Virus record (IMG/VR): IMGVR_UViG_2663763400_000001
DNA: 11,250 bases
DNA from: a virus
Taxonomy: Monodnaviria; Loebvirae; Hofneiviricota; Faserviricetes; Tubulavirales; Inoviridae
Strand: one strand, 5' to 3'
Below the pieces are notes generated by a model. The model had not been told where the DNA came from, did not search any database, and saw only the letters and a program-made list of their open reading frames with translations. Both the position numbers and the translations under genes were made by a program. Numbering within the stretch: position 1 is the stretch's first letter; every line of letters starts with the position of its first letter. This document shows, piece by piece, positions 1 to 9,583 of the stretch.

Positions 1-258
1 ATGCGCTTTGAAGGGAATGCTTCTACAAGGAAATCTATTCAACAACGTCTTAAGCAGGCTTCAGATGCACGAGCTCAGGAAGTCGCCGGTAGCGAAGTGC
101 TTTACTCCGGTGATGCCAACCTGACTGATGAACAGATCGCTAAATTACCTTTTGCGTTATATCGCCAGGGCTACGAGTACTACTGGAAAACCCACGCACA
201 CCCAAACATATTCAGAAGCGTGAGGGATATAGTGCCATCAAAGCGCTGGCTGCTGTAA
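1..258 (+). CDS. Hypothetical protein (85 aa as given; begins at the window edge, so the true start may lie upstream); chromosomal flank outside the prophage
   Basis: Open frame from ATG at position 1 to TAA at 256-258. The product is not recognisable by eye. It lies outside the dif-bounded element. Confidence 0.35.
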   Translation: MRFEGNASTRKSIQQRLKQASDARAQEVAGSEVLYSGDANLTDEQIAKLPFALYRQGYEYYWKTHAHPNIFRSVRDIVPSKRWLL

Positions 259-410
259 ACAACGCAATTATCCAACTCATGGTCTATGGTGTGCCATCAC
301 TGAACAGAGGTTGAATTTTTCTACCGAAACGGGAGGGAAGTCAGAAATCACAACGTATTGATTTATCTGTGTGTGGATGTGAATGGTGAAGTAAAGGACC
401 TTCACAGGCA

Positions 411-438
411 ATTTAACATAATATACATTATGCGCACC
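411..438 (-). other. dif: dif chromosome-dimer resolution site (XerC/XerD target), serving as the left prophage junction
   Basis: Plus strand reads ATTTAACATAATATACATTATGCGCACC, the exact reverse complement of the 28-bp E. coli dif sequence as I recall it (GGTGCGCATAA-TGTATA-TTATGTTAAAT). XerD arm 411-421, central region 422-427, XerC arm 428-438. Confidence 0.85.
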
Positions 439-565
439 AATGGTAAGGATGGCAGAATCTGGCGGGAATCGTTGACACTGGCCGTCAACTGGCTACTATC
501 GACAGTGATTCAAAATCATCCGTTTCTCCAAACGAATCAGAATCAAATGTCTGTCAGCAGTAAGT

Positions 566-597
566 GAACGGCCTGACCTCACCAATCAGGCCTGTTC
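566..597. repeat. Imperfect inverted repeat (about 11-bp stem, 9-nt loop) overlapping the stop codon of the 579..827 ORF
   Basis: GAACGGCCTGA (566-576), loop cctcaccaa, TCAGGCCTGTTC (586-597). The arms are complementary apart from one bulged base. No clear U-tract follows on either strand. Confidence 0.35.
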
Positions 598-788
598 ATC
601 CAGTTAGTTGGTAAATCTGTACCTGATACACGAGAATCAAACACCACTTCTTCAGTGCCATCACCATGATGCCGGATAATCTGGTAACCGGATTGCGGGT
701 TCTGGCTCTCAGCTTCATAAGCAGCCCGGAATGCTGGATCTTTAAGAAGCATCACTTTCAGCTCCTGATGTGTCATGAATTTTTCCAT
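579..788 (-). CDS. Hypothetical small protein (69 aa from ATG at 786-788; the longest ORF extends to 827, 82 aa)
   Basis: Minus-strand ORF with product MEKFMTHQELKVMLLKDPAFRAAYEAESQ... The ATG at 788 has a weak GGGG Shine-Dalgarno 6 nt upstream, while the ATG at 827 has none. No family recognised. Confidence 0.4.
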   Translation of the reverse strand: MEKFMTHQELKVMLLKDPAFRAAYEAESQNPQSGYQIIRHHGDGTEEVVFDSRVSGTDLPTNWMNRPDW

Positions 789-972
789 GATAAGCCCCGA
801 TGAATGCTGCCGCGCCGAATCAGCCATAACGCTGAAAATGGAAACTGTACGGCTTGGCCAACCCCGGACAGCAACAAAACAAGTTTTGTCACTGACCGGC
901 GTTATCTTTCAAAACAGACAGTTAACGATTTTTTGTCTGGTGTTTATGCGTGAAATTTCGTGCGTACGAAAT

Positions 973-1221
973 TCACCACCAATAAACAAACGGACGATGA
1001 CTGACCGGAAAAGCAATGCCGTCAGCATCATGACCACGCATTACCTGATTGAGAAGCCTTCTGACTTCACGACGCTCAGGCCTGGTCATCATCATATTGC
1101 GATACCAGGACGGCGATTTATCAAACCATCTGGCACAACTGGCAAAATGTGAACCTACACGACGATAAGACTTAAGGCGGCCACCGGGAAGTCGGTCACG
1201 CGCCTTATTTTTTACAGACAT
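973..1221 (-). CDS. Hypothetical small, strongly basic (Arg-rich) protein, 82 aa
   Basis: Minus-strand ORF immediately downstream of the secretin gene, preceded by an AGAGGA Shine-Dalgarno 6 nt upstream of the ATG at 1219-1221. It is co-oriented with the phage operon. The overlapping + strand ORF 775..1152 has no ribosome-binding site. Confidence 0.4.
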   Translation of the reverse strand: MSVKNKARDRLPGGRLKSYRRVGSHFASCARWFDKSPSWYRNMMMTRPERREVRRLLNQVMRGHDADGIAFPVSHRPFVYWW

Positions 1222-1309
1222 AATAAATCCTCTAAGTAACTGAATACCTAGAAGATGTCGTACTGTTCATACCCCATAAAAGTTAACGCCATAATAAAAA
1301 TCCATACAA

Positions 1310-2554
1310 TCAGTTCAGGTTGTCCCGGAACAGTTCACCGCTCCTCGCGGCGCTGCGGGGCGTCGCCCTGCTCCGGTCAACCTTTCTGACCTGAAGCATC
1401 ACCATAATATCAGTCTTGTTGCTTTCACTGGTACGGGAACCGAAGAAGCTCCAGCCGGAACTGGCCTTACTGTCTTTCTGTTCAGCAAGGCCACCAAGTA
1501 AAATAATATCACCATCTGCAAGGCTGACTTCGGTTGTTACATCACGCTTGATAAGGGTTGGCGAGTTATTGACGCCGGTTTCAGTGGTCACAAAGTTGGA
1601 AAGCTGCTGCTGAATCTTGAGATCCATTGTCCGACTTTTGATTGATGGCGTCACGTTAAACAAAACACCGCTGGAACGATATTCAACGGATTGCGTTGTC
1701 GTATTGTTATTCACCGTAACACTGCCCAGTACTGGCACATCAGAGCCGACTGAAAAAGACGCTGAGGCATTATTTTTTACCCGCAGTCGTGGCGCACTGA
1801 CAACAGTAAAACGACTGTCGGTTTTCAGCAGATTGAAAATGGCATCAATGGAGCCGGTTCGAATATTGATAAAATTATCCAGTCCGGCAGCACCAACTGA
1901 AATATTGAATTTATCAGACAGAATTTTAGCCGCTAAAAGAATGCCGGAGCCGTCAGACTGCGAGGTCTGAACCTCAAAAACATAACCAGAAACAACCACT
2001 TCATCACTCATCGTATCCAGCGAAGTGACCAGTGTTTTCAGGATGGCGATATCCTCTTTCGTACCATAATAAACCAGAATATCACCGGTTCGATTGATGT
2101 AGTTGCTTGCCCCTGATGAACCTTTTAGCGAATCGTCAGAAATCACGGCTCCACTGTTATTGAAGGAGCCTGAAACGTAGCCGCCAAGAATATCAGACAG
2201 GTAGGCAACAGAACGGTACTGAGGCGTATAAGTCCATGTATAACGTGGCTTAACCGGCTCTTTCGGCGTATAGGGCGCGATAAAATCAACACCCTTTTTC
2301 GTCCATATTCGAATGTTCATATTGCCAAGATAACGGGTTACAAATTCCCGTTCATCAATATCAGGTGTTAACCTGAATGTAATCATTCGTTCATCATTAA
2401 CAAGCTGTGGATCTAGCATATACGGGACTTTAAGCACCTCACTGTAAATAAGAGAAATAGCCTCCGGTAGCTTGACTTTATTTAATTCAAGCTCTGACCC
2501 TGCGAAAGCACATGAAGAAAATAGTAGCGTTAATGCGAGTAAAATCTTTTTCAT
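1310..2554 (-). CDS. Filamentous-phage secretin (pIV-like outer-membrane export channel), 414 aa
   Basis: N-terminal signal peptide MKKILLALTLLFSSCAFAGS. The C-terminal region has a secretin-like Gly/Ser-rich segment (DGDIILLGGLAEQKDSKASSGWSFFGSR...). The start codon overlaps the stop of the upstream Zot-like gene (TAATG at 2552-2556). Position matches gene IV of Ff phages. Confidence 0.85.
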   Translation of the reverse strand: MKKILLALTLLFSSCAFAGSELELNKVKLPEAISLIYSEVLKVPYMLDPQLVNDERMITFRLTPDIDEREFVTRYLGNMNIRIWTKKGVDFIAPYTPKEPVKPRYTWTYTPQYRSVAYLSDILGGYVSGSFNNSGAVISDDSLKGSSGASNYINRTGDILVYYGTKEDIAILKTLVTSLDTMSDEVVVSGYVFEVQTSQSDGSGILLAAKILSDKFNISVGAAGLDNFINIRTGSIDAIFNLLKTDSRFTVVSAPRLRVKNNASASFSVGSDVPVLGSVTVNNNTTTQSVEYRSSGVLFNVTPSIKSRTMDLKIQQQLSNFVTTETGVNNSPTLIKRDVTTEVSLADGDIILLGGLAEQKDSKASSGWSFFGSRTSESNKTDIMVMLQVRKVDRSRATPRSAARSGELFRDNLN

Positions 2555-3579
2555 TATTTTTTCCCCGTATAAAGCGTCACACGCTCACCATCAATAATTC
2601 CGCTCATCAACATCCCTTTGTAATTAAAACTGGATGCAGGAACGGCACGCAAAACACCGGCACCATTAACAAGAATCACAAACGCCCTGCCTTCACTGGT
2701 CATTCTCCCTGATATACGCCACTCGGTTGAAAGTGGCGGTTCAGCTGGTTCTGAGGGAGTATCTGGTGCTGGAGTAGCAGCGGAAGAACGAAACATGGCC
2801 GCATCACGTACATCTGTTGTAGTCAAATCTGGCGAGGGATCGCTTCGGCCAAACGTGCTGAAAAATGAGTAAATCAGCCAGCCTGACCCGATAAACATCA
2901 ATGGAAAAAGCACAAGAAAGAACCTGACTTTGCCAGAATTCCAGATGCTCTGGCGTTTATCTGTCTGCTTTTCATTACCGTTATTTCCTTCATAACTTTT
3001 GTAAAGTTCAAAAATATCAGGGTTATATTTATTGCGATAACTGGTGACGAGGTTGCTTTTATAGATTTTGTGGCCTGAATATACGTCAATGCAGTAATGA
3101 TTATTCAGGCCCAACGCTTTCAGCTTGCGCATCCGGTAAGTTGTTTCTATTTTGTCTTTCAGAAAGCGAGCAATATTAGAAAGTGACTGATTTACAATAA
3201 CCAAATCACAGCTAATACCCGTTTCAGGGTGCGTAAAATGACGATGTTCAGCAATAAATGATTTCTTCTCAGCCGTCATATCCTTATCGCTACCGAAGAT
3301 TCGCCATGCTTCATCAATAACAATTAAATCACCAAACTGGCAAAAGCTCCCTTCCCCACCTTTAAAAGGAAAGAAATCTGCTTTAAGCACATCATCATTA
3401 TCCACAACAATAATTTCTCCCGTTGCATCAGGATAACGTTCGGTGATTTTATCTTTTTGTAAACCATAAATGTTCGTCACAACTCTCCGGCCGCTGGTAA
3501 ATGCCGGAATAATGACATTGCAAACGGCTTCATAACTTTTTCCTGAGCCGGGTATGCCAATATATGCAGAAATAGCCAT
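2554..3579 (-). CDS. Zot/pI-like phage assembly ATPase (zonula occludens toxin family), 341 aa
   Basis: N-terminal Walker A motif (MAISAYIGIPGSGKS), a Walker-B-like hydrophobic stretch ending in DE (LIVIDEAW) and a central transmembrane segment (FFLVLFPLMFIGSGWLIYSFF). This is the architecture of Ff gene I and Zot proteins. It sits directly upstream of the secretin gene. Confidence 0.9.
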   Translation of the reverse strand: MAISAYIGIPGSGKSYEAVCNVIIPAFTSGRRVVTNIYGLQKDKITERYPDATGEIIVVDNDDVLKADFFPFKGGEGSFCQFGDLIVIDEAWRIFGSDKDMTAEKKSFIAEHRHFTHPETGISCDLVIVNQSLSNIARFLKDKIETTYRMRKLKALGLNNHYCIDVYSGHKIYKSNLVTSYRNKYNPDIFELYKSYEGNNGNEKQTDKRQSIWNSGKVRFFLVLFPLMFIGSGWLIYSFFSTFGRSDPSPDLTTTDVRDAAMFRSSAATPAPDTPSEPAEPPLSTEWRISGRMTSEGRAFVILVNGAGVLRAVPASSFNYKGMLMSGIIDGERVTLYTGKK

Positions 3580-3582
3580 AAC

Positions 3583-3870
3583 TCACCCTATAACAGGAAT
3601 ACGTCGAATAATAAAACGAGTAGCCATTGCGGAGATAATCATACTAATCCCCTGTGGTAATTTACTCAGGTTAATGAAGTACCAGAATCCGTCTGATAAA
3701 TTGGCAAACAGCGATGAGAGATTGCTTGAATCTGGCAGTAACTCAACAAGGATTTCAACGAAGCCCTGGACTACAAAATACAGCGCAAAGAATACGACGA
3801 ATTTAATAATCAATGACCGGAATACAAAACCTAACAAAGTATTTAATGCACTAATCAGAATCCCAAACAT
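3583..3870 (-). CDS. pVI-like minor coat / membrane protein, 95 aa
   Basis: Very hydrophobic small protein encoded between the pIII-like gene and the Zot-like gene, the position of gene VI in Ff phages. Strong AAGGAG Shine-Dalgarno 7 nt upstream of the ATG at 3868-3870. Confidence 0.55.
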   Translation of the reverse strand: MFGILISALNTLLGFVFRSLIIKFVVFFALYFVVQGFVEILVELLPDSSNLSSLFANLSDGFWYFINLSKLPQGISMIISAMATRFIIRRIPVIG

Positions 3871-3882
3871 AGTTGCACTCCT

Positions 3883-5595
3883 TTAGGCACTCAGAATAAT
3901 ACGGAGCGCAACAAATCCCCATATAATCAGAAATATGGTTTCTACGGCGCTTCTGTTCTGCTCAATTAACGGACAATGGGAGTCAATTCTGTACTGGTGA
4001 TTAAACACGCTGAATTCAACAACGGGGCAGGATGCTGAACGAGAGCCGATGTTAAATTCGTTTGTAAAAGGCAACAAGTTAATAATTGGCGTTAAAATAT
4101 CTCTTGCCGTTGGCGTTTCTTCAAGCTCAGGCTCTTTTACACCGGGATCTTCTCCCAAATCTATATTGCCATTATTTCCAGTGTCAGATCCTGAGTTGTT
4201 ATTAATGGTAATATCAATATTGACGTCAGCCCCTGCACTGTCAGATACAGGTGAAAGCATATCTAATAACGTTGGAGATAGCCTAAGTTCCGACATCGCA
4301 GAAGTTACTTCAGCCGGTGAAACCTCTTTAAACGGTAAGCCGTTATAATCGGCATTAACGGCAGCTTCAGACCACAGCTCGTTAATCATGTCGGCAAGAA
4401 GTGCTGGCGATACACTAACACTATCAAGATACTCCAGATAATCAATCATGGACTCAATATTTCCAGCCTCCAGTACTTCCGTCATGGCTTTATATTTGGT
4501 ATTGGTCCAGATAGTAAGCTCACTCTTTTCATCAATATCTTTTGCGGTGTAATCCTCTTTTTCAGGAACGGCACAAATCGTCGAATATCCACCATTTGAC
4601 TGATTAGTCGTTTTACAAGGCGTGTTGTGATACTGATATTGCTTTCCTGCTGTTAAATAAGCAACGCTGTAATACATGGGAAGCCCTGCTACATTTTCAT
4701 ACATGGGAATACCTGCGGGAAATGAAGATGCGGCCGGGTTGCTATACAAGTGTGTAATCTCAGGTATTTCATAAAATGAGGAAGGATAAGTAAACTTATA
4801 ATTCTGTTCAGTAAAGGATACATCTCCATTACTGTTGACAACTTTATTCGTCACAGTGCGTTCAAAATTCGTTAGTGTTTCAGTATAAGTACGCGAGTTA
4901 TAGTCATTAAGATAATTTCTGGCAATTTCAGTTGGATTATCACCATAGTAATAAATTAGCTCTTTCGAATCCTGATAATAATAAAGTGCATTATCTGGCG
5001 TGGAATATCCTGTTTCAACACCTACAACTGGAGAACCCGCATCCACATTATTACGACTAACATGAAGGATTACCGGACTTAATTCCTGTGGTTCAAAATT
5101 AACGGTTATCGTCTTACTTTCACCACTTTGACCACTGTACGTTACTTCATATAAATTATCGGAAATCTTTTTACCGTTAGTCATTACCATTACCGAGCCG
5201 TCAGATGAACTCAAAGAAGACGGAACAAAAGATGATACAGCAGCAGCAATACCCGCCCACGTTGCAACACCGCTCATTTTGTATGATGAGGCAGCAGGCA
5301 AGTATTCGGCAGCATTAGCCGCAGCGCGGCCAACAAAAACACGGGTTGCTGTAAGCTGTGATGCCGTATAAATCGCATCATTGGCAGCAAAGCGACGAAC
5401 AAGCACCCGGCCAACGACTTTAGGAATAACAGCCCGCGCAGCCACTGCTGCAATTGCTGGTACAAATGAATATGAATATCGGGGAAAGGAAACCCAGAGA
5501 AAGGAAAAAATAAAGGAATAAACCGTCAGCCTCTTAGCCCAAGAATAACGACATAAGCTGAGACGATCCCCCATAAAAGGGAACCCAATTTCCAT
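3883..5595 (-). CDS. pIII-like minor coat / host-adsorption protein (start codon uncertain; longest ORF 570 aa)
   Basis: Large ORF after the major coat gene with Gly/Ser/Asn-rich linker segments (for example NNNSGSDTGNNGNIDLGEDPGVKEPELEETP) and a C-terminal hydrophobic anchor (IFLIIWGFVALRIILSA), as in Ff pIII. The ATG at 5595 has GGAG 8 nt upstream. An alternative start at 5277 precedes a signal-peptide-like segment (MSGVATWAGIAAAVSSFV). Confidence 0.6.
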   Translation of the reverse strand: MEIGFPFMGDRLSLCRYSWAKRLTVYSFIFSFLWVSFPRYSYSFVPAIAAVAARAVIPKVVGRVLVRRFAANDAIYTASQLTATRVFVGRAAANAAEYLPAASSYKMSGVATWAGIAAAVSSFVPSSLSSSDGSVMVMTNGKKISDNLYEVTYSGQSGESKTITVNFEPQELSPVILHVSRNNVDAGSPVVGVETGYSTPDNALYYYQDSKELIYYYGDNPTEIARNYLNDYNSRTYTETLTNFERTVTNKVVNSNGDVSFTEQNYKFTYPSSFYEIPEITHLYSNPAASSFPAGIPMYENVAGLPMYYSVAYLTAGKQYQYHNTPCKTTNQSNGGYSTICAVPEKEDYTAKDIDEKSELTIWTNTKYKAMTEVLEAGNIESMIDYLEYLDSVSVSPALLADMINELWSEAAVNADYNGLPFKEVSPAEVTSAMSELRLSPTLLDMLSPVSDSAGADVNIDITINNNSGSDTGNNGNIDLGEDPGVKEPELEETPTARDILTPIINLLPFTNEFNIGSRSASCPVVEFSVFNHQYRIDSHCPLIEQNRSAVETIFLIIWGFVALRIILSA

Positions 5596-5618
5596 AATTC
5601 AATCTCCATAATAACCTC

Positions 5619-5646
5619 AAGTAAAACGGGCGATATTGCATCGCCC
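5619..5646 (-). terminator. Candidate intrinsic terminator or attenuator between the major coat gene and the pIII-like gene
   Basis: On the minus strand, GGGCGAT-GCAAT-ATCGCCC (7-bp GC-rich stem, 5628-5646) is followed by GUUUUACUU. Its position matches the known terminator downstream of gene VIII in Ff phages. Confidence 0.4.
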
Positions 5647-5659
5647 ATGAATAATGAAT

Positions 5660-5893
5660 TTATGCGGATTTAACGGTACGCAATACCCAGCGAACGCCAG
5701 CGACACCGGCATAAAGTGTTACCAGTGAAGCAGCAACGGCCATAATCGCAACCAGAACTGTACTGAAATCAATGCTGTTCGTCAGCGGCGATAAATCAAC
5801 ACCACTTGATGCCGCTCCTTCTGCAGCGAAAGTCGCGCCAGAAACAGCCATTAATGCAGGTACAGCCAGAAAACTAACGATTTTTTTAAACAT
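5660..5893 (-). CDS. Major coat protein (pVIII-like) precursor, 77 aa
   Basis: Signal peptide MFKKIVSFLAVPALMAVSGATFA, then a mature protein starting AEG... with an acidic N-terminus, a hydrophobic transmembrane core and a basic C-terminus (RWVLRTVKSA). This is the hallmark layout of inovirus major coat proteins; the M13 mature pVIII also starts AEG. GGAG ribosome-binding site 8 nt upstream. Confidence 0.8.
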   Translation of the reverse strand: MFKKIVSFLAVPALMAVSGATFAAEGAASSGVDLSPLTNSIDFSTVLVAIMAVAASLVTLYAGVAGVRWVLRTVKSA

Positions 5894-5927
5894 AACTCTA
5901 TCTCCATTACATTTTAAAGGTTCGCAT

Positions 5928-6179
5928 TCAAGCAGTACGAACCATCTTTATTACCTGTCCCACACCTACAGAAAAAAGCCAGAGCAGCAGGACAGAGCCA
6001 AAACCTAATGTCCAGTAATTTCCCATTGCAGAATAATCAATTTGATGAAATGGTTCAGAACGTACCATTATTGCCTGACATTCTTTTGCATTGTTCGCAT
6101 TACATAAATAACCTTCAATACGGTAACCATTTTCAGGAATATGATTATCAAACTGAATATCGAAACCTGATGCATCCAT
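5928..6179 (-). CDS. Small membrane protein, 83 aa, in the position of Ff minor coat proteins pVII/pIX
   Basis: ORF between the putative ssDNA-binding gene and the major coat gene. It has a C-terminal hydrophobic helix (YWTLGFGSVLLLWLFSVGVGQVI). The start is tightly spaced after the upstream stop (TGATTATG). Confidence 0.5.
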   Translation of the reverse strand: MDASGFDIQFDNHIPENGYRIEGYLCNANNAKECQAIMVRSEPFHQIDYSAMGNYWTLGFGSVLLLWLFSVGVGQVIKMVRTA

Positions 6180-6181
6180 AA

Positions 6182-6499
6182 TCAGCCTTTTATTTCAGTA
6201 ATGCCGCCATCTGATGAAATGTTATAAGTTACTCCTTCCCTCCCCTCCATTGACCAGACGCGAACATATACAGGTATCTGGACTAACTTACCGATAAAAT
6301 TATTTGCCTGATTCATTACACCGGCATTAACAAGAGCCTGAGATACACGAATAATAATCTGGTCTTGCTTAGTGCCGCCAAAACCATCAGGAATCTCTAA
6401 GCCAACACCAATTTCATTATAGTATCCCTGACCATTGACCTTATTACGCTGGCGAGCACCAAGCATTTTACCTTTTACAAAAAGACCATAATTAGACAT
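6182..6499 (-). CDS. Putative ssDNA-binding protein (gene V equivalent, by position and size), 105 aa
   Basis: Small ORF immediately downstream of the replication initiator gene, with a strong AAGGAG Shine-Dalgarno that overlaps the initiator stop codon. The assignment is positional; I could not confirm sequence similarity to Ff gV by eye. Confidence 0.45.
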   Translation of the reverse strand: MSNYGLFVKGKMLGARQRNKVNGQGYYNEIGVGLEIPDGFGGTKQDQIIIRVSQALVNAGVMNQANNFIGKLVQIPVYVRVWSMEGREGVTYNISSDGGITEIKG

Positions 6500-6510
6500 A
6501 TCACTCTCCT

Positions 6511-7563
6511 TTAATGCCAGTTACTGGCATGTGAAATACGGTTATAATCGAAAATTAAACCTTTCTCATAAACCCATGATGGAATTTTGGCTGGTTTGGC
6601 TTCAAGAGTACGAACCAACGGAACAACGTTATTAGAATCCGGTGACTCACAATAAAAGTTAATATCTATTCCGAAAGAAAGTAATTCTTTACGGTGTCGG
6701 TAGAATGTAGGTTTCGGTAACATCTCTTTCATGTTCGCGCCCTGCTTCCACAATAAATATGTAGACTGTATTTTTCTTGGGAGATTAATTATTTTTTCAT
6801 CAGTTAATATAGTATTTTGATTCATTTCTATTCTCCCTACATAGTCAGAGAATAATTTATTGGGCGTCTCAATATTCCAGCTATTACCAAGCGTAAGATT
6901 CAAATCAATTAATTCAGTTGTTCTTAATGTTAATTCAATGCGTAATTTATCTTTTGACCAGTCCAGTAAACCAGCTTTAACGAATTCGTCTGCCATCTGG
7001 TGCCCTTTTTTGCCAGATGTATGCTCATCATATTTTGAATAAAATTTCAGGCTCCAACGACGGGAGTTTTTCCCTAAGTAAACAGTGCCACCTTTACCAC
7101 AGGCGCGACCGTGGCGAGTTTTAGCTTTAAATTCTGCGGCATATAACCATGCGCGGACATTTTCTAATGTTGACAATGAATACATGTAATTGATATCGAT
7201 GCGCGAGATCTTAAATTGCCCTTCCATGACCTGCCGATAGGATGGTAGATCATGAGGAATATGCAGTAATGCCAATATTCTGGCGTAAGCTGTTAACACC
7301 AACCCTTGCAAATCGTCGGAACCGATAACAGAGTGACCTTGCAAAAACTTTGATGGATTACCGTCAATGTAGAGATGTGTTGCCCGACCTTCACCATCAG
7401 ATCCAACAGACCTTACTTTCATTGTGGACTCATGCGAACCGCGAACGGTCAACCGTTTTACTGTTTCCCACTCCACTGCACCGTCAGCATCGACGCTGAC
7501 GACACTACCAGCCGGTAACGGTCGGTGTGTGCAAGGCAGGATTCCGGTAAACCAGTCGATCAT
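6511..7563 (-). CDS. Rolling-circle replication initiation protein (pII / RstA-like), 350 aa
   Basis: First gene of the minus-strand phage operon, about 350 aa with N-terminus MIDWFTGILP... Size, position and divergent arrangement with an HTH repressor match the replication initiators of integrating filamentous phages. Confidence 0.75.
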   Translation of the reverse strand: MIDWFTGILPCTHRPLPAGSVVSVDADGAVEWETVKRLTVRGSHESTMKVRSVGSDGEGRATHLYIDGNPSKFLQGHSVIGSDDLQGLVLTAYARILALLHIPHDLPSYRQVMEGQFKISRIDINYMYSLSTLENVRAWLYAAEFKAKTRHGRACGKGGTVYLGKNSRRWSLKFYSKYDEHTSGKKGHQMADEFVKAGLLDWSKDKLRIELTLRTTELIDLNLTLGNSWNIETPNKLFSDYVGRIEMNQNTILTDEKIINLPRKIQSTYLLWKQGANMKEMLPKPTFYRHRKELLSFGIDINFYCESPDSNNVVPLVRTLEAKPAKIPSWVYEKGLIFDYNRISHASNWH

Positions 7564-7734
7564 AAGTAGTCACACCCATCAAAATATGTGTCAATAGTCA
7601 TTTGTGAGCAGATTGAATGGTCACAATGTAATATGCTCAGTTCTGACAGTCAATACATTTGCAATGTTTAAATTGTCAGAAATGAGCATCAAATCTAACT
7701 ATTGAAAAACCACTGTTAAGATGGAGCCAAGTAG
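7564..7734. promoter_or_regulatory. Divergent intergenic control region between the replication gene and the repressor gene (candidate promoters and operators)
   Basis: Non-coding 171-bp AT-rich spacer. The minus strand has a candidate sigma70 promoter toward the replication gene (-35 TTGACT at 7653-7648, 17-bp spacer, -10 TACATT at 7630-7625). The + strand has a TG-TAATAT element at 7627-7634. Repeated GTCAATA (7590-7596, 7649-7655) and TGTCA/TGACA motifs are present. Confidence 0.5.
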
Positions 7735-8181
7735 ATGGGCAACAATGAGCATGAAGTTATGGCGGACAAACAGAGAGCAGAACGTATCAAAAAGGTAATT
7801 CTGGAACACTCGACTTATGAAGAACTGGCCGAGAAGACTGGCATTAGCGTGAGTACGCTGGTCAGGATAGCGTCCGGCAAAACTGAACCTAAATTCAGTG
7901 ACATCATTCAGATAGCTAAAATTACGGGTGCAGACTTAAACACCTTAGCTTATGGCTATGCTCTTGATGTTAAAGAAGAAGCTACCGAGCGGAAGCTAAT
8001 CACTTCTGCGGATGGATATACTGATGAAGAAACCACTAACGCACATAATTTCATCGTGTGGAACATCAGGACACTGGAAAAACAAGATATTCTGGCACTC
8101 GCAAGGCAGGTTTCTGCCTTAAGTTCATACACTTACAGTACTAAAATGTTTATGAAAAAAGCGGTGTCTGGAGAAGAGTAA
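7735..8181 (+). CDS. XRE-family helix-turn-helix transcriptional regulator (phage repressor, RstR-like), 148 aa
   Basis: Contains a Cro/C1-type HTH (YEELAEKTGISVSTLVRIASGKT...IAKITGADLNTLAYG). Transcribed divergently from the replication initiator. GGAG ribosome-binding site 8 nt upstream of the ATG at 7735. Confidence 0.8.
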   Translation: MGNNEHEVMADKQRAERIKKVILEHSTYEELAEKTGISVSTLVRIASGKTEPKFSDIIQIAKITGADLNTLAYGYALDVKEEATERKLITSADGYTDEETTNAHNFIVWNIRTLEKQDILALARQVSALSSYTYSTKMFMKKAVSGEE

Positions 8182-8210
8182 AAGGATTAACAGTCTCAGG
8201 AATGAGACAA

Positions 8211-8246
8211 ACGTGCAGTATTACCAACACTGCACGTTCTTTATTG
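8211..8246 (+). terminator. Candidate intrinsic terminator downstream of the repressor gene
   Basis: ACGTGCAGT (8211-8219), 9-nt loop, ACTGCACGT (8229-8237), followed by TCTTTATTG. Confidence 0.4.
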
Positions 8247-8280
8247 TGCGAATTTTGAACAGTGAAAAAGGATCAAAAGG

Positions 8281-8703
8281 ATGAGTAGAAATAACGAAAC
8301 AAGCGGCGTTGAACTGGTTGTCGTGGGCGTATTTGCTTTCTGTCTGGCAGTTGTTGCCTGGCTAATGAAAACTTTCGATGTTGAATGGCAAACAGCGCTG
8401 GAAACTGCGCCTGGCCTGATAGTGTGGCTGCTTGTTGTCGGGGCGGGGATCTTTTTCGGGATCAAAATGGAAACAGGCCTTGTTCGCTGGGGTGCTCCAC
8501 TGGCGATCGCCCTTCTGATTCCGGTATTCAAACCAATTCTTAAGGAAGCTGCCGGAGTTCGTGAAACGGGTGGGCTGGTTTTCGATGATATGGTTTCGTG
8601 GTACGGAACTGGCTGGGGAATGTCGTTGATGTTTTTCGGAATTCTTATCATCGGATACGGGATGCTTTATTGGTGGCACAGAAGAAATTCATATTACTGG
8701 TAA
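8281..8703 (+). CDS. Hypothetical polytopic inner-membrane protein, 140 aa (cargo gene 1)
   Basis: About four hydrophobic helices (VELVVVGVFAFCLAVVAWLM, GLIVWLLVVGAGIFFGI, APLAIALLIPVF, MSLMFFGILIIGYGMLYWW). AAGGA ribosome-binding site 8 nt upstream. The antisense ORFs 8241..8651 and 8362..8679 are Pro/Ser/Thr/Arg-rich, typical of the reverse strand of a hydrophobic gene. Confidence 0.6.
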   Translation: MSRNNETSGVELVVVGVFAFCLAVVAWLMKTFDVEWQTALETAPGLIVWLLVVGAGIFFGIKMETGLVRWGAPLAIALLIPVFKPILKEAAGVRETGGLVFDDMVSWYGTGWGMSLMFFGILIIGYGMLYWWHRRNSYYW

Positions 8704-8731
8704 TCAATAAAACGTAGAAGAGAGGAAATAT

Positions 8732-9007
8732 ATGAAACTGAATCCTGAGAAATACAATAGAAATATCACCCTGCTATGTCCTGTGTGCGGAAATACAGAG
8801 ATGGAACACGAGGAAGAGTCTGAAGTCGTCAGATGTGTAGGCTGCGGGAAAGAATTCACTAATGATGAGTTAATCCAAGAAAACGGGGTGAGTATTGACG
8901 CCCATGTGGATGAGATAAAAGAAGAGTTAACAAAAGATATTCAAAAACAGTTTAACGACATGCTCAAAAAGGCATTTAAAGGAAGTAAAAATATAAGGAT
9001 TAAATAA
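8732..9007 (+). CDS. Hypothetical zinc-ribbon protein, 91 aa (cargo gene 2)
   Basis: CPVCG and CVGCG motifs 17 residues apart (CxxC-x17-CxxC), followed by an acidic/Lys-rich tail. AGAGGA Shine-Dalgarno upstream of the ATG at 8732. AT-rich codon usage. Confidence 0.6.
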   Translation: MKLNPEKYNRNITLLCPVCGNTEMEHEEESEVVRCVGCGKEFTNDELIQENGVSIDAHVDEIKEELTKDIQKQFNDMLKKAFKGSKNIRIK

Positions 9008-9486
9008 TGACAACAAGTGATGCCATCGCTTTAGCTGCGCTTGTAGTATCGATTTACACTATCATATCATCAGAAGTGAAGTCGAGAAAAAGTGATAGAG
9101 AACAAAAGGTTATAAAGGATGAGCAAGACAGATTACGTAAGTTGCTTCTGGAAAAAGAAACAAAGTCAGCAATTAATGAGATGAAGGCTGAGCTTGGTGC
9201 CCGCCTCGTAAAAATAGCCAAAAACAACTATAGACTCAAGATATTTAATAGAGGGAAAGTTGAGGCTAAAAATATAGAGATTCATTTCCCTGATAACGAT
9301 GGCAATGAATATCTTTCCATGCATGATGTAGAAGATAAATTTCCATATGAAGTATTACACCCGCAACATGGGATTGAAATTTTAGCGGGACTAAGCTTTG
9401 GAAGCAAAACTAAATACCGAATAAAACTCATATGGGATGACAATTATAAAAAAAGGAATGAAGAGGAGTTTTTCATTTCTATATAA
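9007..9486 (+). CDS. Hypothetical membrane-anchored protein with a charged coiled-coil-like segment, 159 aa (cargo gene 3)
   Basis: The start overlaps the upstream stop as TAATG (9005-9009). N-terminal hydrophobic anchor (AIALAALVVSIYTIIS), then a highly charged K/E/R-rich helical segment, then a C-terminal region rich in aromatic and beta-type residues. Visibly AT-rich. Confidence 0.6.
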   Translation: MTTSDAIALAALVVSIYTIISSEVKSRKSDREQKVIKDEQDRLRKLLLEKETKSAINEMKAELGARLVKIAKNNYRLKIFNRGKVEAKNIEIHFPDNDGNEYLSMHDVEDKFPYEVLHPQHGIEILAGLSFGSKTKYRIKLIWDDNYKKRNEEEFFISI

Positions 9487-9553: not shown

Positions 9554-9583
9554 CAACATAACGAGTCGTACATTATGCGCACC
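9552..9583 (-). other. Hybrid dif-like site forming the right prophage junction: dif XerC arm plus a phage-derived expanded central region and XerD-like arm
   Basis: In dif orientation it reads GGTGCGCATAA (perfect XerC arm, 9583-9573), then TGTACGACTCG (11 bp instead of the 6-bp TGTATA), then TTATGTTGAAA (9 of 11 identical to the dif XerD arm TTATGTTAAAT). It shares 15 contiguous nt with the true dif at 424-438. Confidence 0.65.

Follow-up and report, generated by a model that had tools for sequence, protein, structure and literature searches.

In the 11,250-nucleotide stretch of DNA analysed here (IMG/VR record IMGVR_UViG_2663763400_000001; hereafter the window), which is E. coli chromosome holding a prophage with an inovirus gene content by Pfam, a 171-bp spacer separates a replication initiator gene (rep) from a divergently oriented gene for a 148-amino-acid (aa) helix-turn-helix (HTH) regulator. 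An earlier note on this DNA had taken the spacer for a divergent control region between a repressor and the initiator. The extent of the spacer was confirmed from the starts of the rep open reading frame (ORF; 7563, minus strand) and of the 148-aa ORF (7735), the RefSeq annotation was found to place the same two genes on its flanks, and the role given to it was supported by the Pfam assignments of both proteins:
6511 to 7563, minus strand: replication initiator (Rep) of the gene II/G2P type (Pfam Phage_CRI 1.2e-73, G2P_X_C 3.6e-34)
7564 to 7734: divergent control spacer, 171 bp, from ORF coordinates; left cassette border at 7563/7564
7735 to 8181, plus strand: 148-aa HTH_3 (Cro/CI-type) regulator (Pfam HTH_3 1.6e-09, 38.1 bits against a cutoff of 23; phrog_3557)

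On sequence grounds the element is the filamentous prophage called CUS-1 in E. coli and YpfΦ, or CUS-2, in Yersinia pestis, because its Rep was 100% identical to both copies in Yersinia pestis NCTC5923 and its control region was near-identical in E. coli, including UTI89 (E. coli O18:K1; 99.4%). A 501-bp query over the spacer (7400-7900) matched YpfΦ at 99.6% identity, and of 5426 complete E. coli genomes, 98 contained the control region at 99.4-100% identity. The YPO2273-YPO2274 region of YpfΦ/CUS-1 is the same element as the one studied here, and a review of YpfΦ described the intergenic region as 'believed to be involved in transcription initiation' (PMC4266046).

Two short words, GTCAATA and TGTCA/TGACA, had been singled out in the earlier note as repeated elements that could be operator half-sites. 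Both were indeed repeated, with two copies of GTCAATA (7590-7596 and 7649-7655; 0.028 expected in 171 bp, P = 4e-4) and three of TGTCA/TGACA (7589-7593 and 7674-7678 on the plus strand, 7644-7648 on the minus strand; 0.39 expected, P = 0.008). Such words are modestly non-random, and they are fragments of larger features. The repeat unit itself was an 18-bp dyad, ATGCTCA-N4-TGAGCAT, which occurred in four copies with TGAGCAT as the dominant half-site (the perfect dyad written out is ATGCTCACAAATGAGCAT); its register was taken from relatives, both Aeromonas-type and other inoviruses, that carry a perfect 18-bp palindrome. The dyads pair one strong half (TGAGCAT) with one weak half (TGACWRT). The proposal of TGTCA/TGACA half-sites held in so far as the copies at 7644 and 7674 are weak halves, but the strong half TGAGCAT had been overlooked. 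GTCAATA could not be kept as an operator or as a determinant of specificity, since each copy, read on the rep strand, is a TTGAC word resembling a -35 and is retained where regulators and repeats differ. The four dyads are as follows:
7594 to 7611: O_A, ATAGTCATTTGTGAGCAG (ATAGTCA-TTTG-TGAGCAG), 3/14 mismatches
7633 to 7650: O_B, ATGCTCAGTTCTGACAGT (ATGCTCA-GTTC-TGACAGT), 3/14 mismatches
7672 to 7689: O_C, ATTGTCAGAAATGAGCAT (ATTGTCA-GAAA-TGAGCAT), 2/14 mismatches
7735 to 7752: O_D, a possible site, ATGGGCAACAATGAGCAT (ATGGGCA-ACAA-TGAGCAT), 2/14 mismatches, in regulator codons 1-6

From O_A to O_D the start-to-start spacings were 39, 39 and 63 bp. Four dyad matches with three or fewer mismatches in about 190 bp stood against 0.008 expected (P ~1e-10), and beyond these four sites the window held one more such match. 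Of the ten TGAGCA hexamers in the window, four fall within 7605-7751, and a repeat finder also reported longer direct repeats ending in TGAGCA. When TGTCA-N4-TGAGCA was searched for with at most one mismatch, three occurrences were obtained in the window, all of them inside the spacer, while shuffled sequences gave 0.22 per window.

Toward rep, a promoter TTGACT-17-TACATT had been put forward in the earlier note. It is present on the minus strand at 7653-7625 and was the best candidate for the rep promoter (P_rep):
7648 to 7653, minus strand: P_rep -35 TTGACT, from a consensus scan; lies inside the second GTCAATA
7625 to 7630, minus strand: P_rep -10 TACATT, from a consensus scan; predicted start near 7618
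7589 to 7597: TGTCAATAG, the first GTCAATA element, TTGACA on the rep strand; conserved across cassette types (described below) and adjoining O_A

The hexamers of P_rep match the sigma-70 consensus at 9 of 12 positions with 17-bp spacing. Its position-weight score (9.81) was the highest in the spacer on both strands, and scores of 9 or more were reached at just four sites across the 11.25-kb window, both strands counted; by raw count, promoter-like sites in 7300-8300 were as frequent as expected by chance (2 against 1.8 in shuffles). The dyads are placed closely around this promoter: O_A lies at about +8 to +25, O_B fills the P_rep spacer between -35 and -10 and overlaps the -35 by 3 bp, and O_C lies at about -55 to -72, which is 63 bp before the regulator ATG. 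The wording 'overlapping candidate promoters' in the earlier note was not borne out, as no second promoter had been named and none was strongly predicted toward the regulator by position-weight score. A second rep promoter starting from the first GTCAATA (TTGACA, 7594-7589) was rejected, since it has no usable -10. TGTCAATAG was kept in nearly all cassette types whatever the regulator, without a matching -10, and it may belong to the leader of the rep mRNA.

O_B and O_C are also the arms of a larger symmetrical structure that was picked up by the repeat finder:
7633 to 7689: 57-bp imperfect palindrome, arms O_B and O_C, core ACATT-TGC-AATGT

The two 27-nt halves of this inverted repeat (7633-7659 and 7663-7689) are 81% complementary, and the palindrome might be read as a hairpin of single-stranded DNA (ssDNA) acting as minus-strand origin, packaging signal or recombination site, the repeats being merely its arms. 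Ff filamentous phages use hairpins of such kind. The ssDNA fold reached -15.9 kcal/mol (z = -6.0), a value that none of 200 shuffles equalled, and at locus L026 both partners of one mismatched position were changed so as to make a pair. Over all variants, however, 18 of the 27 pairs were invariant, 8 varied only by breaking and one was compensatory, and 77 of 500 shuffles did as well, so that covariation lent the stem no support. Two adjacent mismatches interrupt the stem in the commonest variant, and the inner-stem changes in L026, L027 and strain A20 all break pairs. In relatives that share the dyad, O_A and O_C are present and O_B is not, and hence there is no palindrome; O_A and O_D sit outside the palindrome, and better origin candidates were found at 8193-8238. 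We consider it very unlikely that the repeats are there for the sake of a hairpin.

The spacer and the regulator gene together form an exchangeable cassette, in that homology between related phages stops at the rep ATG (7563) and returns at 8180-8192. Four cassette types (A, B, C and D) were recognised. In type B, found in E. coli and Klebsiella, the flanks are 97-99% identical, whereas the 167-bp spacer is unalignable and the regulator 40% identical; in type C, found in Brenneria and others, an unrelated 60-aa regulator is placed between the same borders. A threefold repeat of its own is present in each of these types, GTSACAnAWWTGT in type B and ATGAGTTCA in type C. At an equivalent distance, and despite the unalignable spacer, type B carries TTGAGA/TTGATA-17-TACATT, preceded by TG, type D carries TTGACA-17-TAGCAT (by inspection), and a TTGAC(A/T) word recurs at the P_rep -35-equivalent place in cassettes of other types.

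Conservation across related prophages, which the earlier note had named as a check on its motifs, was found for the dyad. Of the 33 half-site columns, one varied among 11 distinct variants of type A, compared with 45 of the 138 remaining spacer columns (Fisher P = 1.5e-4), and 5 of the 12 N4 columns varied; the TACATT -10 was unchanged in all 11, and the -35 was altered in one (A20). Beyond type A, the dyad accompanied all phage-borne regulators with the recognition helix GIS(V/I)STLVRI.., which make up six lineages with regulators 55-85% identical overall. In these same-helix lineages one dyad lies 62-63 bp before the ATG and a second, the O_A equivalent, 139-144 bp before it, and in three of them (L039/L040, L043 and L062/L063) the site at -63/-62 is a perfect palindrome. 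In ungapped comparison of positions -75 to -1 with distant same-helix relatives, the O_C half-sites were identical at 11-14 of 14 positions, against 39-69% elsewhere. At about 20 loci with five other helix types, no dyad was found at -63. Regulators with the helix GINVRTLVRIATAK (72-75% identical) had RGACA-N4-TGTCY at the homologous O_A and O_C positions, so that the site differed alongside the recognition helix, as would be expected of a helix and an operator that change in step. O_B was restricted to the YpfΦ/CUS-1 group and L036, and an O_D equivalent with three or fewer mismatches was also present in L036 and L043 and was weaker elsewhere.

These comparisons bear directly on the reading that the repeats arose by chance, or are leftover duplications, and have no function. 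It would agree with the modest P values of the short words and with the chance-level raw count of promoter-like sites given above. On the other side stand the clustering of the dyads, their fixed position in six lineages, the perfect palindromes and the substitutions that avoid the half-sites; the reading was effectively refuted by variant conservation, clustering and lineage comparisons, and its probability is negligible.

The same comparisons help to decide which protein would bind the dyads, as Rep (through iterons or autoregulation) or a host factor (LexA, RovA/SlyA or IHF) might do so in place of the adjacent regulator. Cassettes A and B have a common Rep but different repeats. At an Aeromonas-type locus (L041, 593-2947), the same regulator family and dyads stand beside an RstA-type (Rep_trans) and RstB module, so the immunity cassette moves among inoviruses whose replication proteins are unrelated. 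Rep iterons were rejected, since the repeats track the regulator and not Rep. LexA co-represses PrstA in CTXφ; in the spacer studied here, the best LexA-box score was 3.7 against at least 13.7 for real boxes, with a matrix built from known sites, and as the spacer has no LexA box, co-repression of the CTXφ kind was rejected. Binding by a host factor would leave it unexplained why phages of one host differ in their repeats. A conserved AT-rich centre at 7651-7673 is not accounted for by the dyads, and binding of RovA to the putative promoter region of YPO2274 has been reported for Y. pestis (PMC4266046). RovA/SlyA may act additionally on this centre, and that Rep or a host factor binds the dyads instead of the regulator seems highly improbable.

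The predicted structure of the regulator has a five-helix N-terminal HTH domain (predicted local distance difference test, pLDDT, 85-91). This HTH model was superposed at ~1.4 A over ~62 residues on 434 Cro (2cro), P22 c2 (2r1j) and SinR (3qq6), with Foldseek E-values >1e-3, and a sequence search of solved structures gave marginal HTH matches only. The C-terminal half was modelled, with low confidence, as two long helices. No Peptidase_S24 domain was found in the regulator by Pfam, so RecA-mediated self-cleavage on SOS induction would not be expected.

Taken from sequence comparison, the spacer is likely to be the lysogeny and immunity switch of the CUS-1/YpfΦ prophage, with the dyads bound by the adjacent regulator. 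P_rep would be a strong sigma-70 promoter that reads leftward into the rep, ssDNA-binding, coat, assembly and secretin genes. The 148-aa HTH protein would bind the 18-bp dyads, presumably as a dimer or higher oligomer through its helical C-terminal half. Occupancy of O_B, between the -35 and the -10, would keep RNA polymerase out, O_A would serve as a roadblock shortly after the start, and O_C, 39 bp upstream of O_B, would add cooperativity. O_C and, possibly, O_D on the start codon would control the regulator's own expression. With the operators occupied, phage replication and production would be kept off and the lysogen would be immune to phages of the same cassette, whereas phages with a different cassette would escape repression. 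In silico support for this switch comes from the sites, their enrichment and conservation, the co-variation with the helix and the promoter match. Binding and its sign (repression), cooperativity, autoregulation and the inducing signal are inferred.

The sign of control is where another reading parts from the proposed switch: the regulator might bind the dyads and yet be an activator, or a Cro-like modulator of a chronic and non-silenced infection, and not a lysogeny repressor. YpfΦ is continuously produced, is often episomal and gives partial protection only (PMC4266046). O_C would stand at about -48 of a candidate regulator start (described below), a position compatible with activation, and most relatives lack a site inside P_rep. 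Yet O_B in the P_rep spacer and O_A in the early transcribed region occupy classical repressing positions, and the position and cassette behaviour match those of RstR and other inovirus repressors such as FpsR of phage SW1 (PMC4762005). We regard an activator or modulator as improbable. In favour of the repressor reading, YPO2273 was already put forward as the RstR-like repressor in the review that reports the RovA binding and the partial superinfection protection given by a resident YpfΦ (PMC4266046).

Several observations weigh against the repressor switch. The dyad consensus was set after inspection of the data, the tests in other lineages being made later. At 39 bp, the operators are spaced about 3.7 helical turns apart, which is not obviously in phase for cooperativity, and O_D lies inside coding sequence, where it is inseparable from coding constraint. 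As O_B is missing from most relatives, promoter occlusion is not a family-wide mechanism. YPO2273 is called an RstR homolog of which it is said that a part in regulation is still to be shown by experiment (PMC4266046), and two secondary sources are split on whether RovA raises or lowers phage transcription. For the regulator's own promoter, position-weight scoring of the spacer gave several weak candidates, none of them convincing, to which an extended -10 can be added:
7643 to 7673: weak regulator-promoter candidate CTGACA-19-TTAAAT, by position-weight score
7673 to 7702: weak regulator-promoter candidate TTGTCA-18-AACTAT, by position-weight score
7714 to 7722, plus strand: candidate extended -10 TGtTAAGAT (hexamer TAAGAT, 7717-7722), score 5.16, no -35; conjectural

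The T, A, A and T of the TAAGAT hexamer were invariant in register across seven diverged spacers. A start driven by it would fall near 7729, six bases before the ATG, and would place O_C around -48 and O_D around +7 to +24. A Shine-Dalgarno-like GGAG just 3' of TAAGAT is also conserved, which argues for a transcript start further upstream and contradicts a TAAGAT start. The last of the adverse points comes from plasmids. IncP-like conjugative plasmids (trfA, korB, trb/tra) of E. coli and Salmonella encode a 122-123-aa regulator homolog with an identical HTH and recognition helix, its DNA being 94% identical over window 7774-7900; examples are L046 (pEC187_3, 41.4 kb; gene 1903-2274), L044 and L045, and well over a thousand contigs carry it. 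No cognate dyad was found anywhere on the IncP-like plasmid with half-site spacings of 0 to 12, and the rule that links helix to site was accordingly not confirmed there.

From these observations a further pair of ideas can be framed jointly, namely that the switch has a fixed, autoregulated architecture like that of lambda PRM and that the plasmid twin acts in trans on CUS-1/YpfΦ phages. In the first, the operator would always lie 63 bp before the ATG, by a promoter without a -35 and with a nearly leaderless repressor mRNA; if true, this would mean positive and negative autoregulation of the lambda PRM kind in an inovirus, with an extra operator on the start codon in the present element. In the second, the plasmid, as it lacks a cognate dyad of its own, could act through its regulator copy in trans on phages of the CUS-1/YpfΦ type, which would amount to plasmid-borne immunity against, or control of, filamentous phage. 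Taken together they are tentative and, in our view, unlikely to hold.

In comparison with known systems, the parallel to the rstR-rstA region of CTXφ drawn in the earlier note stood for architecture and cassette exchange but not for ancestry, given another Rep family, a similarity to RstR confined to the HTH and no LexA box. As in CTXφ, a repressor gene is divergent from a replication gene over a compact spacer, the sites being predicted here, while the CTXφ control region has three RstR sites (PMC4762005). Also as in CTXφ, spacer and repressor vary as a cassette between near-identical phages (heteroimmunity), integration is at dif via the host Xer recombinases, and tandem prophages and satellite-like mini-units occur. 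Unlike RstA, which belongs to Rep_trans, the Rep studied here is of the gene II/Phage_CRI plus G2P_X_C kind, and no similarity was detectable between the two. The 148-aa regulator and RstR (112 aa) shared 26% identity over 78 HTH residues (pairwise E = 5e-6), and CTXφ was not among the six records obtained by tblastn, at a limit of E 1e-3, from a phage collection that includes it. The long helical C-terminal half predicted for the regulator, the 18-bp dyad operators and the lack of a LexA box further set the present system apart. Judged by sequence, the relation to CTXφ appears to be one of analogy and not orthology.

The operators of 434 and P22 c2 resemble the present ones in the HTH fold of their proteins, in being dyads of 14-18 bp and in having conserved outer halves with a free centre, and the lambdoid phages likewise have several operators of graded quality around divergent promoters. 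The differences here are that there is no S24 autocleavage domain, that the host element is an inovirus and that the sites are spaced by 39 bp and not adjacent. By analogy, the mechanism looks most like a lambdoid Cro/CI-type dyad-operator system set in an inovirus. FpsR of the Shewanella phage SW1 was shown by electrophoretic mobility shift assay to bind the replication-gene promoter (PMC4762005). As with the regulator studied here, this HTH repressor has no protease domain and is encoded opposite the replication and structural operon. SW1 differs in having face-to-face promoters with very long overlapping 5' untranslated regions and an FpsR that does not bind its own promoter, whereas the spacer here is compact and has a predicted site 63 bp before, and possibly also on, the regulator start.

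Among the satellite-like units, the one in E. coli O114:H49 90-9280 (L004, 2112-6164) was an 1831-bp mini-unit repeated head to tail in at least three copies, each with a truncated ssDNA-binding gene, rep, the spacer and a type B regulator. It looks like an analogue of the CTXφ RS1 satellite or of an Ff miniphage.

Two hairpins, GTCTCA-GGAA-TGAGAC and ACGTGCAGT-ATTACCAAC-ACTGCACGT, follow the regulator stop directly and mark the right cassette border:
8193 to 8238: two conserved hairpins at the right cassette border, kept in types A, B and C; candidate terminator and/or plus-strand origin

Two independent rearranged elements, in E. coli 90-9280 (L004, 3800-3830) and in Klebsiella spallanzanii (L008, 3699-3731), break inside the second loop, immediately after ATTACCA. 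On the rep-sense strand this loop reads GTTGG/TAAT, like the M13 gene II nick loop GTTCTTT/AATA. The second hairpin loop is probably the plus-strand origin, and the candidate origin has the same relative position as ig-1 of CTXφ. An 11-mer, CACGTTCTTTA (8233-8243), matches the core of M13's plus-origin nick region without a difference (L032, 322-332). Being on the plus strand, it is opposite in sense to the rep coding sequence, and the match may be meaningful or a coincidence.

The rest of the window was consistent with this assignment to a filamentous prophage. The gene rep is the first of a leftward phage block on the minus strand, in which it is followed by genes for a G5P-like ssDNA-binding protein, a coat protein, a 570-aa candidate adsorption protein, a DUF2523 protein, a Zot/pI homolog and a secretin. 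Rightward from 7735, the gene for the 148-aa HTH_3 protein is followed by three small ORFs. An intact E. coli dif was found at the left prophage end (411-438), and the right end (9556-9583) was a hybrid half-dif in which the XerC arm and part of the centre are kept (GGTGCGCATAATGTA/CGACTCGTTATGT), with hipA/hipB directly beyond it; this hybrid fits the XerC-dependent integration reported for YpfΦ. Some strains hold a tandem prophage duplication (for example E. coli SF-173, L001, 1-11100), and the number of matching places per genome had a median of 2 and a maximum of 5. In E. coli A20 (L002), genes for a TIR-domain protein and a hypothetical protein, possibly a defence cargo, replace the accessory genes right of the regulator (3920-5225), and the attachment protein gene is truncated by an IS21-family insertion. 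No known RNA family was found within the window, and a DNA search of the phage collection with the spacer region gave no match.

The fitness of both extra-intestinal E. coli K1 and pandemic Y. pestis has been tied to CUS-1 and YpfΦ. For these phages a putative operator (ATGCTCA-N4-TGAGCAT) and a promoter have now been defined and the borders of the cassette placed exactly; apparently, neither the operator sequence nor the promoter hexamers nor the alternative cassettes had been described in the CUS-1/YpfΦ literature. The general picture of phage repressor-operator switches is unchanged. At least four heteroimmune cassettes appear to circulate among the dif-integrated inoviruses of Enterobacterales, which would explain the coexistence of related prophages and tandem arrays.

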